64,000 nucleotides of DNA, from the sequence record NZ_CP040186.1; one strand, given 5' to 3'. The stretch is from a plasmid. The notes under the pieces are model-generated. The model was not told the DNA's origin and ran no database searches. It saw only the letters and a program-made list of their open reading frames with translations. The position numbers were made by a program, and so were the translations under genes. Below, piece after piece: positions 35,822 to 41,507 of this stretch (position 1 is its first letter; every line of letters starts with the position of its first letter).

Positions 35822-36194
35822 GTGGTTTCGTCGGGGATGCGCTCCAGGTTCAGCCCGGCAAACTGGCGCAGGATCGTGGTTTCGTACAGCGCTTCCTCCA
35901 TCGCTGGATCGCTGTAGCCGAACCAGTTCTGCAGCAGATGCACACGCAGCATCGCCATCAACGGGTAGGCCGGACGGCCACCTTCACCCTTCGGATAATG
36001 TGGCTCGATCAAAGCAATCAAGCCCTTCCACGGCACCACCCGATCCATCTCGATCAGGAACAACTCCTTGCGGGTTTGCTTGCGCTTGCCAGCGTACTCG
36101 GCGTCGGCGAAGGTCATCTGCTTCATCGGGAAACTCGGTGGGTGGGGTCGCGGTATTTTGCCAAATCAGAAAGTCTTTTTCAGAGTTTCCCTAG
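35822..36194 (-). mobile_element. Partial IS5-family element (copy A). Inner end and first 106 codons of the transposase only.
   Basis: MKQMTFADAEYAGKRKQTRKELFLIEMDRV...DETTI, then a breakpoint at about 35822. Terminal GGGAAACTCTGAA...GGCAAAATACC at 36150-36194 is the inverse of 40913-40960. Confidence 0.65.
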
Positions 36195-36233
36195 GCTGAC
36201 AAGCCAAGCGCTGGATCGCAACCATCCATCACC

Positions 36234-37103
36234 TTATCCAGCTAGATCTGCCTCCTCCAATAAGTGCCGCACAAATCCCGGCGGGTGCAGATTTCCGGGA
36301 GGTTTGCGCCAGATCAGTTGGAGACGCTTTTCAAGCCCCGGGATGGGAAGAGCTACCAGCGCGCCACTGCGAACTTCGTCTTGTACTGCGGAAGCCATCA
36401 CCAACGACACGCCGAGTCCCGCCCTCACTGCTTGTTTGACTGCCTCGGTGCTGCCTAGCTGCATACCGCTGCGAGGCACGCCCAGTTCGCCAAAGTATTC
36501 GGTCAGAAGCCGTCCGGTACCGCTACCCGGTTCACCTCCCAGCATCGGCAGGTCCACCAGACGATCACGTTCTATGCACCCTGCTTCAGCCAGCGCATGG
36601 TCGGGGCTGACGATAAGCACCAGCGGCTCGACCCGCCAGAGGCGGTGTTCGAAGTCGGGGTGAGGTAGCCACCATTCCATGATCGCGGCGTCGAGCTGGC
36701 CCGCCAGTAGCTGGTCGGCCACATCCGGGTTGGCGGCGATGCGCAGATCCACCTCGCCCCTCTCATTTGCGGTCGTCAGATAGTTGCGCACGAATGGCTG
36801 GAGAAGGTAGGTGCCGATGTTGGAGCTGGCCCCGACGCGCTCACGATTGCCATGCAGGGCTTCTAGCGCCCGGGCGTGCATGTCGAGCAAGGCGGTCGCA
36901 TGCGGCATGAAGGCCAGCGCCCGTGTGGTAGGCTGGCAGCCGCTACGACTGCGCTGCACCAGCGTTACGCCGACCTGCTCTTCAAGCTTCTGCAAGTGCT
37001 GCGACACCGTCGGCTGGGCCAGCCCCAACGCCCTCGCCGCGCTCTGAAAACTGCCTGTTTGAACGATCGCTACCAGGCTCTTCAGCCAGACCGGATTCAA
37101 CAT
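36234..37103 (-). CDS. ptxE: LysR-family regulator PtxE
   Basis: LysR HTH ([33 protein letters not shown]). Last gene of the ptx cluster. Confidence 0.75.
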
Positions 37104-38107
37104 GCGGCAGGCTCGGCCTTGGGCAGACGGTTCGCAGCGTTGATTGGGCGCGCACCTGCCAATACCTGGATGATGTTCTGCGCTGCACAACGTTCAATCT
37201 CCAGGCGCACCGCGCGCACTGCCGACCCTATGTGCGGAGTGAACAGCGTATTCGGATGCGCGAGCAGCGCAGGATCGATCAGCCGCGGCCGGTCCGCGCG
37301 AGCCCAGTCTTCCATTTCGAATACATCCGCCGCATACCCGCCGAGCTGGCCTCGCTCAAGCGCCGCGAGCACGGCGGCTTCATCCACTACCGAACCACGA
37401 CAGGGGTTTACAAGCAGAGCGCCCGGCCGTACGAGGGCAAGCAGCTCGGCGTTGACCAGATGCTGGGTATCGGCATTCAAGGGAAGCGCCAGCAGGATGA
37501 AGTCCGAGCTGGCGAAGAGTTCGCTGCACGCCACCTGGCGCAGGCCGAGCCGTTGCTCGGTTTGTGTATCCAGAGCCTTCGCCTCGTGGTACTGCAGGGT
37601 CGCGCCCCATCCCTGCAAGCGATCAGCCATGGCCAGTCCGATGGCGCCCATGCCAAGGATGCCGACCGTAGCGTTATCCAGCCCCGTGCCGTAGAACTGT
37701 GGTTGCCAGCCCTGGAACTCGCCAGAGCGGACGAACGCATCTGCTGCCCGCAGATGCCGCCCCAGCCCCACCGCCAGTCCGATCGCCAGCTCGGCAGTCG
37801 GGACCGTCAACAGATCAGGCACGAAGGTCAGCCAGACCCCGCGGGCAGTACAGGCGTCCACATCGAAATTGTCGAAGCCCTTGAGCGCGCAGCCGACTAC
37901 ACGCAGCTCAGGGCAGGCTTGAAGAAAGTCTGCATCGACCCGATCGGGCATGAACGCCATCATCGCCTGAGCATCGCGACAGCGGCGCAGAATTTCCTCG
38001 CGCGTCAGCGTGCTGTCGGTCTGGTTGGTCATCAGCTCGCAATGTGGCGCCAGCAGTTGCAGGATCTCATCGTGTACTCGGTGAGTTATAACGAGTTTCG
38101 GCAGCAT
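37097..38107 (-). CDS. ptxD: NAD-dependent phosphite dehydrogenase PtxD
   Basis: The 336-aa protein [19 protein letters not shown]...GILGMGAIG...PKAEPAAC matches Pseudomonas stutzeri WM88 PtxD as recalled (D-2-hydroxyacid dehydrogenase fold). Confidence 0.85.
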
Positions 38108-38115
38108 GGTTTGTC

Positions 38116-38955: not shown

Positions 38956-39815
38956 ATCGTGGCGAAGTCGAGGCCGAGCAGCGATCCCATTTTGCGGATC
39001 ACATCGTAGTCGGCGTCGGTGATTGGCGCGAAGGCCTCGGCCTTGAAGTTGCGCAGCACTTCGGGATCGTCGATACCGACGAATACATCCCGCACCTTGG
39101 TTTTCAGCTCGGGGCTCAGGTTCGAGCGCATCGCCCAGGGGTACTGGGGGTATTCGCCGCTGTAACCAAGTACTTTCACCTTGCTCGGATCGATTAGGCC
39201 ACGTTCGGCTACGTGATTGAAAATTACCTCCGACAGCCCACCCGCATCGGCGTTGCCGTTCGCCACGTTGACGGCAACGGCGTCATGCGTGCCCACAAAA
39301 TATTGTTCGTAGTCCTGCCCACCCGTCAAACCGGCCGTCTCAAGAAGCACGGTTTTGGGAATCAAATGGCTGGACGTCGATGCCCGGTCACCATAGGCCA
39401 TCTTCTTGCCCTTAAGGTCGGCATACTCATTCACGCCTGACGCCACATTGGCGATAATCACCGAGCGATAGGTCGGCTTGCCGTCGATGACCATGGCAGC
39501 GAAGGGCTCGATGTCGCTTTTGCTTTTGGCCATGACGTAGGACAGCGGACCGAAATACGCCAGGTCGATACGGCCAAAGCGCATCGCCTCAATCATCGAG
39601 GAATAGTCGGTGGTTACGATCAGCTGCACCTTCTTGTCCAGATGCTCTTCCAGATAATCCTTCAGCGGCTGGTTACGCTTGATCAGCTCGGAGGCGTTTT
39701 CGTCCGGCAGCAGGGCAACCTTTAGCACATCCGGATCGGCATCGGCCGCTAGGGCGGACAAACTTGAAACAGCGGACAGCAAGCAAGTCAATAAGAGCGC
39801 GGATAAGCGTTTCAT
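38952..39815 (-). CDS. ptxB: Phosphite/phosphonate ABC transporter periplasmic binding protein PtxB (PhnD-like)
   Basis: Signal peptide and a PhnD-family binding protein. Confidence 0.8.
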
Positions 39816-40639
39816 CGGGACTTCTCCAGTGAAGGTTCGAGCATGACAGGTGGTTCAGCCGGAGCATTCGCTGGCTGAGTCGTAGAGCGGCCTGCATAGA
39901 TGCGCTCAAGCTGCGCATCGGTGAGTTCCGAGGGCGCGGCATCGAAAACGATCTGAGAATCGGCCAGCCCGACGACGCGATCGGCGAAGCGGCGGGCATA
40001 TTCGAGTTGATGCAGCGAAACGATGGCGGTGATGCCGTCTTCCTTGCAGATGTCGCGCAGCAATCCGAGAACACGGACCGAAGTGGCCGGGTCGAGACTG
40101 GCTACCGGCTCATCGGCCAGAATGATCGCCGGCTGTTGCGCTAGCGCACGCGCGATGCCTACCCGCTGCTGCTGGCCACCGGACAGTTTGTCCACCCGGC
40201 TTAGCGCCTTGTCTGCCAGACCGACCCGAGCGAGGCAACTGAGCGCAATCTCCTGATCGGCACGCGGCAGAGGAAACAGCGAGCGGAGCGTGTTGTGAAA
40301 GGCCAGCCGACCGGTAAGCACATTAGCCAGTGCGCTTTGACGTTCGATTAGCTGGTGGTGCTGAAAGATCATGGCGGTACGCCGACGATGCTGACGCAAG
40401 GCCGAGCCGCTGCCGAGCTCACCGAGTTCGCTGGTGACACTGCCGCCAGTGGGCGTGACGAGTCGATTGAGACTACGGAGCAAGGTCGACTTGCCTGCGC
40501 CCGAGAGACCAAGCAGCACGGTGAACTCACCACGCCGAAATGCAATCGAGGTATCGCGTAGGGCTGTCACGCCGCCTGGATAGACGACGCTCAACCGGTC
40601 GACCCGCAGCACGGCGTCCTGTATCGGATGGGGCATCAT
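39812..40639 (-). CDS. ptxA: Phosphite/phosphonate ABC transporter ATPase PtxA (PhnC-like)
   Basis: Walker [10 protein letters not shown], signature LSGGQQQR, Walker B ILADEP. Confidence 0.85.
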
Positions 40640-40912
40640 TTGATCACCTTTCGCAATATTGCTGGCCGCACAATTGCGGTTCGCGATGCAAAGGATAGAA
40701 ATTCCTTGTTACCGCACTGCTTCTAAAGGATGACATTTCGATGAATACTTCGAATCTGCCGTAGCGGGGCGGCAAGCGAAGCCGTGGAAGAACGGGCGCA
40801 ACGTAGCGTCTTTCTTCACGCGGGATACAGGAGGCTTTGATTGATACTGCTGCGGATTCGCTACAGTAACGTTGGGCCAGAACGTAATGCCATCCAAGCA
40901 AGAGAGCGCACA

Positions 40913-41507
40913 CTAGGGAAACTCTGAAGAAGACTTCCAGATTTTGGCAAAATACCCGGATTCCACCCACCGAGTTTCCCGATGAAGCAGATGACCTTCG
41001 CCGACGCCGAGTACGCTGGCAAGCGCAAGCAAACCCGCAAGGAGTTGTTCCTGATCGAGATGGATCGGGTGGTGCCGTGGAAGGGCTTGATTGCTTTGAT
41101 CGAGCCACATTATCCGAAGGGTGAAGGTGGCCGTCCGGCCTACCCGTTGATGGCGATGCTGCGTGTGCATCTGCTGCAGAACTGGTTCGGCTACAGCGAT
41201 CCAGCGATGGAGGAAGCGCTGTACGAAACCACGATCCTGCGCCAGTTTGCCGGGCTGAACCTGGAGCGCATCCCCGACGAAACCACCATTCTCAACTTCC
41301 GCCGCTTGCTGGAGAAACACGAGCTGGCGGCCGGCATCCTCGCTGTCATCAATGGCTCTGGGCGACCGCGGCCTGTCGCTGCGCCAGGGCACCATCGTCG
41401 ATGCAACGCTGATCAATGCGCCCAGTTCGACCAAGAACAAGGACGGCAAGCGCGACCCGGAAATGCACCAGACCAAGAAGGGAAACCAGTATTATTTCGG
41501 CAGTGCG
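40913..41507 (+). mobile_element. Partial IS5-family element (copy B), inverted relative to copy A. The transposase is frameshifted and 3'-truncated.
   Basis: The same transposase N-terminus as copy A. A frame change near 41350 (...ILAVING / [32 protein letters not shown]...QYYFG) and a stop at about 41507. Confidence 0.65.

Follow-up and report, generated by a model that had tools for sequence, protein, structure and literature searches.

The 64,000-nucleotide stretch of plasmid DNA analysed here (sequence record NZ_CP040186.1, hereafter the window) harbors the phosphite oxidation operon ptxABCDE, flanked on both sides by remnants of one insertion sequence (IS). Comparison with related loci makes it very probable that positions 35607-42054 of the window are a 6.4-kb segment of Pseudomonas/Stutzerimonas origin, namely a decayed IS1384-type composite transposon whose phosphite operon should be functional if it is expressed. 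An earlier note, made from the sequence alone, had described the operon as cargo that was delivered by a composite transposon and then immobilised. A composite ancestor is indeed represented by a plasmid of Pseudomonas mandelii JR-1, but the lesion at the left IS copy predates the entry into enterobacterial plasmids, as a genome of Stutzerimonas stutzeri (locus L017) shows it as well.

The window carries an intact WM88-type ptxABCDE operon

By sequence the operon is the known ptxABCDE of Pseudomonas stutzeri WM88, and all five genes are intact. They are located on one strand between positions 36234 and 40639 in the order A-B-C-D-E, with short overlaps, ATG starts and no internal stop codons. 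Protein families were assigned with NCBIfam models, and PtxA, PtxB and PtxC scored above the curated cut-offs. The gene ptxA (39812-40639, minus strand, as are the other four) encodes a 275 aa ABC transporter ATPase (TIGR02315, ABC_phnC, 327 bits with a cut-off of 266) with two amino-acid differences to the Pseudomonas copies. It is followed by ptxB (38952-39815), which encodes a periplasmic phosphite-binding protein of 287 aa (TIGR01098, 289 bits). When aligned with the crystallised PtxB of P. stutzeri (PDB 5O2J, E=6.7e-171), 5 of 264 residues differ, corresponding to 98% identity. The ABC transporter permease PtxC (38116-38943, 275 aa; TIGR01097, PhnE, 294.8 bits with a cut-off of 216.7) is identical to the Pseudomonas copies. 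The LysR-family regulator PtxE (36234-37103, 289 aa), assigned by its matches to LysR-family models, occurs with exactly the same sequence in Pseudomonas, including P. mandelii JR-1. Thus, the ABC importer and the LysR regulator stand in their native order, as had been proposed.

The phosphite dehydrogenase PtxD, an NAD-dependent enzyme (37097-38107, 336 aa), had been matched to the WM88 enzyme, and this proved exact, since all 336 residues equal a sequence of the UniRef cluster that PTXD_STUST represents. Among structures in the PDB, PtxD matched thermostable variants of the P. stutzeri enzyme (E=4e-216), and 15 positions differ from the best-matching chain, 9pr0_A. We take these 15 differences to be engineered thermostabilising substitutions; at each of them the window carries another, presumably wild-type, residue. 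The protein has the D-2-hydroxyacid dehydrogenase fold, the catalytic residues R237, E266 and H292 as well as M53, K76 and R301, and a GxGxxG nucleotide-binding site for NAD in the form GMGAIG. In gene content and gene order the operon of the window agrees with that of WM88 (Metcalf and Wolfe, 1998; PtxD UniProt O69054), and PtxD is 100% identical, with conserved catalytic residues. They differ in that the WM88 operon resides in a pseudomonad whereas that of the window is found on an enterobacterial IncF plasmid, and htx (hypophosphite) genes were not identified next to the operon of the window.

The operon is richer in GC (61.8% for 36234-40639, 60.8% for 36150-40960) than the whole window (51.4%), although it does not reach the 63-65% given previously. 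A value of about 50% for the surrounding DNA holds on average, but not for a block to the left of the operon (32.4-34.9 kb, 58-69% GC).

Two inverted IS1384-like remnants flank the operon

A repeat finder detected inverted arms on both sides of the operon, consisting of a 348 nt pair (35818-36165 and 40943-41290, 99% identity) and a 39 nt pair (36156-36194 and 40913-40951, 85% identity). Both arms match the N-terminal part of the IS5-family transposase model NF033581. The assignment of the flanks to inverted partial copies of a single IS5-family element is thereby confirmed, while their coordinates, initially placed at 35822-36194 and 40913-41507, were refined to 35818-36194 (copy A, 377 bp) and 40913-41502 (copy B, 590 bp).

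Copy A is on the minus strand and comprises the inner terminal repeat and the 5' part of the transposase gene; of an element that is about 1191 bp (~1.19 kb) long when complete, the outer ~815 bp are gone. It is 99.75% identical to an intact IS beside ptxE in the JR-1 plasmid, which is annotated as 'IS5-like element IS1384 family transposase'. Copy B is on the plus strand and likewise retains its inner terminal repeat. It is 98% identical to the intact left IS of JR-1 and 92% identical to the right one. As had been noticed before, copy B is frameshifted, which is due to a 2-bp deletion at ~41346 (AATGGCTCTGGG compared with AATGGCTATCTGGG in an intact copy). Furthermore, its first ~50 nt have the bases typical of the right IS of JR-1 and the remainder those of the left IS, a mosaic that points to an exchange between IS variants by recombination or gene conversion. 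Neither copy is thus a complete IS, and no outer IS1384 end was found anywhere in the window. As the outer ends are gone, a target duplication around the unit cannot be seen here.

The operon belongs to a composite transposon in pseudomonads

The complete form of the unit was found on the JR-1 plasmid (L002, 7184-16260), where ptx lies between two full-length inverted copies of IS1384 in a 9.1 kb unit. Cargo and IS-ptxE junction are the same as in the window, and the IS copies are inverted with the 5' ends of the transposase genes facing inward. In contrast to the 377-bp and 590-bp stumps of the window, both IS copies of JR-1 are of full length and the unit is bordered by TTAG on both sides, as expected for a target duplication. 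When the JR-1 flanks are joined, a perfect terminator-like hairpin, AAAGCCC-TTAG-GGGCTTTTTT, is rebuilt just after the end of a gene. At its outer end the left IS borders on TTAG in at least four different flanks, seen in four genomes. The TTAG duplication within the rebuilt hairpin and the four distinct outer flanks support the view that the ptx unit is a real IS1384 composite transposon in the pseudomonad relatives. The empty target site, with the JR-1 flanks joined at one TTAG, was also searched for in PLSDB, where only JR-1 itself matched. The JR-1 unit and that of the window differ further in that the right IS of JR-1 lies 112 bp further from ptxA than copy B does and harbors another type of group II intron, which includes ltrA.

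Among species-representative genomes, 24 contain the exact 30-mer across the IS-ptxE junction, in 25 stretches altogether. In nearly every case the host belongs to Pseudomonas, Stutzerimonas or Halopseudomonas, with one Telmatospirillum and one Pantoea in addition, and ptx is present in all of these stretches at 98.3-99.9% identity. The segment in the window is 99.7-99.8% identical to the Pseudomonas plasmids JR-1 and p382. A named ptx transposon was not found in the literature. The chromosome of Pseudomonas sp. MPB23 (NZ_CP176771.1) contains two IS1384-ptx units (L012 and L024) whose outer flanks are identical as far as they were compared, which points to the duplication of a larger segment.

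ISPst3, a group II intron and a Tn1721-type end account for the lost IS ends

The outer halves of both IS copies had been reported as missing. They are gone, but their loss has recognizable causes. On the left, copy A is joined to the last 211 bp of the IS21-family element ISPst3 (35607-35817, plus strand, ending ...GCCAACA), which are 100% identical to the sequence following istB of ISPst3 in pNCGM3741 of P. aeruginosa. This junction indicates that an insertion of ISPst3 truncated copy A and that ISPst3 itself was cut later at 35607. On the right, copy B is interrupted by a 5' fragment of a group II intron of about 550 bp (41503-42054, plus strand). The fragment starts with GTGCGAC at 41503, in agreement with the 5' GUGYG of such introns, and matches the Rfam model group-II-D1D4-7 of domains I-IV (RF02012) at 41557-41705 with 122.7 bits (gathering score 34, E=3e-26), whereas no RF00029 match for domain V/VI and no maturase open reading frame (ORF) were found in 41503-42300. 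It is 100% identical to positions 15525-16087 of P. aeruginosa p382.

The intron ends where a Tn3-family transposon end begins (42055-42291, plus strand), which we take to be of the Tn1721/Tn1722 type. It consists of the terminal repeat GGGGAACCGCAGAATTCGG...CTAAG (42055-42091), present as a single exact copy in the window, and of the 3' end of a chemotaxis-protein-like gene; these 240 bp are annotated as 'methyl-accepting chemotaxis protein' in thousands of plasmids. Since homology to p382 stops at 42056, the alignments place the end of the Pseudomonas-derived segment at 42055, where the intron was cut by the Tn1721-type end. The present ends of the 6.4-kb piece, 35607 and 42055, are hence secondary cuts. 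The homology to p382, which runs from 35820 to 42056, was also considered as a discrete mobile unit. For the right end this was rejected, because that end is a Tn1721-type insertion specific to the enteric lineage.

Two different group II introns target one and the same gene, that of the IS1384 transposase, at sites that lie 9 bp from each other. The D1D4-2 intron, with ltrA and domain V, is found in p382 (L003, 13675-15524) and JR-1 (L002, 13796-15647) and is absent from the window. The D1D4-7 intron is shared by the window (41503-42054), p382 (L003, 15534-16087), L008, L017 and the Pantoea locus L028. In p382 both introns are carried in tandem.

The left lesion, and probably the intron, date back to pseudomonads

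To place these events relative to the entry into enterobacterial plasmids, the junctions were compared between hosts. In S. stutzeri L017 the junction of ISPst3 and copy A agrees with that of the window at every base, and ISPst3 extends further there than in the window. Since the junction exists there, the comparison dates the loss of the left outer end to the pseudomonads, before entry into enterobacterial plasmids, and the segment would have arrived by another route than its own transposition. The frameshift of copy B and the same intron are also present in p382 of P. aeruginosa (99.7-100% identity, no gaps), and an intron occupies the same site of copy B in S. stutzeri L017, P. aeruginosa, another Pseudomonas sp. 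and Pantoea loci. Use of the right copy was therefore probably lost, and the intron gained, while the unit still resided in pseudomonads.

According to the sequence of events that we propose, an IS1384-type composite transposon with ptxABCDE as cargo would have arisen in pseudomonads, where copy A would then have been cut by ISPst3. Copy B would have acquired the frameshift and the group II intron and would later have been cut by the Tn1721-type end. The mobile frame is dead, as neither a transposase nor an outer end of its IS is left, and IncF metal-resistance plasmids, most of them in Klebsiella, now carry the block along passively as a fixed module.

Alternatively, in the order of events given by the earlier note, composite transposition through its own IS1384 copies could have brought the unit into this plasmid, with truncation following within enterobacteria. 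The data from pseudomonads do support composite transposition of the intact unit there, and enteric plasmids show later trimming, both in the cuts at 35607 and 42055 and in K. pneumoniae plasmids in which the block begins at 35662-35665 and ends at 41935. Nevertheless, we consider this very improbable in view of the L017 junction with its longer ISPst3, the frameshift and intron in common with p382, and the finding that genomes of P. aeruginosa, P. putida and Stutzerimonas have copy A cut within the same 6 bp. In addition, none of the enterobacterial records among the matches listed had flanking copies of full length.

The break in copy A was not restricted to ISPst3. In the window and in L003, L005, L009, L013, L014, L016, L017, L020 and L027, copy A is truncated inside the same 6 bp (IS positions 818-824), and this occurs in four unrelated left-flank contexts. 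These are ISPst3 (at 35818 of the window and in L017), a truncated IS66 region (p382, L003 8001), a flank common to P. putida, S. stutzeri and other Pseudomonas, and a flank in three Stutzerimonas genomes. An internal GAATGGT resembles the outer terminus of the IS, GGATGGT, and the cluster may reflect a surrogate end or a cleavage hot spot inside IS1384. A Chi-like TGGTGG was examined as the cause of the recurrent break and discarded, since in its orientation it would not protect the side that was kept.

Left of the ISPst3 remnant, ~160 bp (35444-35606) separate it from position 35443, where homology to ptx-free Klebsiella plasmids ends. An annotated 68-aa hypothetical ORF (35466-35672), which spans the junction at 35607, is probably spurious.

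Predicted function and expression of the phosphite module

Assimilatory phosphite oxidation is established for the WM88 genes, and the scheme is carried over to the window by sequence identity. Phosphite would be bound in the periplasm by PtxB, imported by PtxA and PtxC at the expense of ATP, and oxidised to phosphate by PtxD with reduction of NAD+, while PtxE would be a LysR-type regulator. As all five genes are intact, a host of the plasmid should gain an efficient route to phosphite as phosphorus source when phosphate is scarce. In line with this, a related PtxABC of Ralstonia sp. 4506 together with PtxD allows E. coli to grow on phosphite (PMC5357788). The same transporter also takes up phosphate, which raises the question whether the value of the module lies elsewhere, in an additional high-affinity phosphate/phosphonate importer or in an NADH-generating dehydrogenase. 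We regard this as extremely improbable, because PtxD is specialised in phosphite oxidation and has the sequence of the characterised enzyme, PtxB is a 98% match to the phosphite-binding crystal structure, and the hosts already own Pst and Pit. A literature search returned nothing specific on phosphite growth of plasmid-bearing Klebsiella.

To judge expression, the presumed promoter region of ptxA (40640-40912, minus strand), the 273 bp upstream of the gene, was scanned. A Pho-box-like site was found at 40747-40730, 108 bp upstream of the ptxA ATG, with 10 of 14 matches to CTGTCAT-N4-CTGTCAT. White and Metcalf reportedly showed in 2004 that the P. stutzeri operon is induced by phosphate starvation through PhoBR, and our statement on Pho regulation draws on this and on the weak motif match. 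A terminator scan yielded a single predicted 'terminator', which is the 5' hairpin of the group II intron.

Several observations weigh against an operon that is used by its present hosts. The candidate Pho box is weak, with 68 equally good matches in 128 kb (both strands of the window), and a scan for sigma-70 promoters upstream of ptxA revealed no consensus promoter. In a transcriptome of plasmid pBIC1a in E. coli TOP10, all five ptx genes had very low transcript values of 2-5 (PMC6286996). Furthermore, Klebsiella and E. coli possess a slower, PtxD-independent oxidation of phosphite via alkaline phosphatase and C-P lyase, which makes the added benefit of ptx uncertain, and the near-identity of the module among plasmids may be due to recent spread rather than to selection.

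These points would fit a silent hitch-hiker, that is, a recent arrival whose Pseudomonas promoter is not expressed in enterobacteria and which persists by linkage to sil/pco/ars/mer and the plasmid backbone. Besides the low transcript values, the weak Pho box and the lack of a consensus promoter in the scan, the 99.6-100% identity across hundreds of plasmids is consistent with recent clonal spread, and the module is located in an IS-rich junkyard. However, all five ORFs are intact and free of stop codons whereas the adjacent IS copies have decayed, and the few differences from the Pseudomonas copies leave the PtxC, PtxD and PtxE proteins unchanged relative to JR-1. Moreover, Metcalf and Wolfe reportedly first cloned the WM88 genes in 1998 by their expression in E. 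coli. If the pBIC1a cells were replete with phosphate, which we assume, low values are expected for a Pho-regulated operon, so that these data cannot separate a silent operon from a Pho-regulated one. Overall, we consider an unexpressed passenger unlikely and favor a decayed composite whose operon is functional if expressed.

The module is widespread on Klebsiella plasmids

The description of an F-like plasmid with metal-resistance genes was accurate. The window encodes an IncFII repA and sopAB, with ars and mer upstream and sil/pco downstream of ptx, and its closest record is typed as IncFIB/IncFII, MOBF and MPF_F. Phosphite oxidation had been regarded as unusual cargo for such a plasmid. This did not hold when the IS-free operon (36195-40912) was used as query against PLSDB, in which 629 plasmids matched, 612 at >=80% coverage and 618 at >=99% identity. 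Of the 629, 575 are from Klebsiella (Pseudomonas 15, Raoultella 12, Escherichia 10). Among complete E. coli genomes the operon is present in 7 of 5426 and is always plasmid-borne. RefSeq routinely annotates the gene as 'phosphonate dehydrogenase PtxD', the pBIC1a table lists five ptx genes (pBIC_00179-00183) with 'mobile element protein' genes on either side (PMC6286996), and 'phnD/E ptxD' are mentioned on a Klebsiella outbreak plasmid, 'Nepal plasmid A' (PMC6382945). The module is already known, widely annotated and common rather than unusual cargo.

Klebsiella IncFIIK/IncFIB plasmids such as pBIC1a carry the same block as the window at 99.6-100% nucleotide identity, with ISKpn26 nearby. The variant in the window is shared with plasmids of Raoultella, K. 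quasipneumoniae, Citrobacter and Enterobacter, and compared with the common K. pneumoniae form it is longer by ~160 bp on the left and ~120 bp on the right. The Acinetobacter plasmid pCl107 likewise provides a clinical Gram-negative with plasmid-borne ptxABCDE, but its proteins have only 38-64% amino-acid identity to those of P. stutzeri, indicating a separate lineage and not this mobile unit (PMC10117892).

The WM88-type unit may be an undescribed IS1384 composite that circulates among pseudomonads, and selection for phosphite use could have kept its crippled derivative on Klebsiella plasmids, a tentative idea that we consider rather unlikely. About 0.8% of all sequenced plasmids carry the operon, and most of them come from clinical and wastewater Klebsiella. 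If selection is indeed at work, possible sources of phosphite would be fungicides, fertilisers and industry, and the view of ptxD as a rare gene that is not associated with mammals and is gained mainly where phoA was lost would be contradicted (PMC12704751). In that 2025 PNAS survey, ptxD was present in 1.2% of species genomes and in none of the mammal-associated metagenomes, and it co-occurred negatively with phoA. By contrast, the WM88-type operon is found on 575 Klebsiella plasmids, many of them from human clinical isolates, and this prevalence on plasmids qualifies species-level surveys that call ptxD rare.

Phosphite and ptxD are being advocated as a 'clean' system for selection and biocontainment that needs no antibiotic. 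It is therefore of use to know that hundreds of conjugative Klebsiella plasmids already carry a complete and apparently functional copy of exactly this gene set beside metal-resistance genes. The practical value of our findings is modest, and the known mechanism of phosphite oxidation is unchanged. What is added is the exact anatomy of the block with ISPst3, the intron and the Tn1721-type end, its ancestral composite in pseudomonads, and a loss of mobility that, by these junctions, began before the transfer to enterobacterial plasmids.

Neighboring features

Outside the ptx unit, the Tn1721 fragment is interrupted by an intact copy of ISKpn26 (IS5 family; 42292-43487, minus strand). Its terminal repeats were found, and its 326-aa transposase ORF (42439-43419) is annotated as ISKpn26 in a collinear record. 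The flanking tetranucleotides CTAG (42288-42291) and CCAG (43488-43491) do not match and hence form no duplication. From 43484 onward the window lacks ~2.4 kb, with genes for cytochrome b562 and a CDF transporter, of the otherwise collinear plasmid p602815-NR (L001). Together, the mismatched flanks and this gap suggest an IS-mediated deletion or recombination.

The second GC-rich block on the left of ptx (32400-34900) contains a large 'RelB/DinJ family' ORF, an HTH regulator and hypothetical genes. As it is also present on 63-kb K. pneumoniae plasmids without ptx, it was acquired separately.

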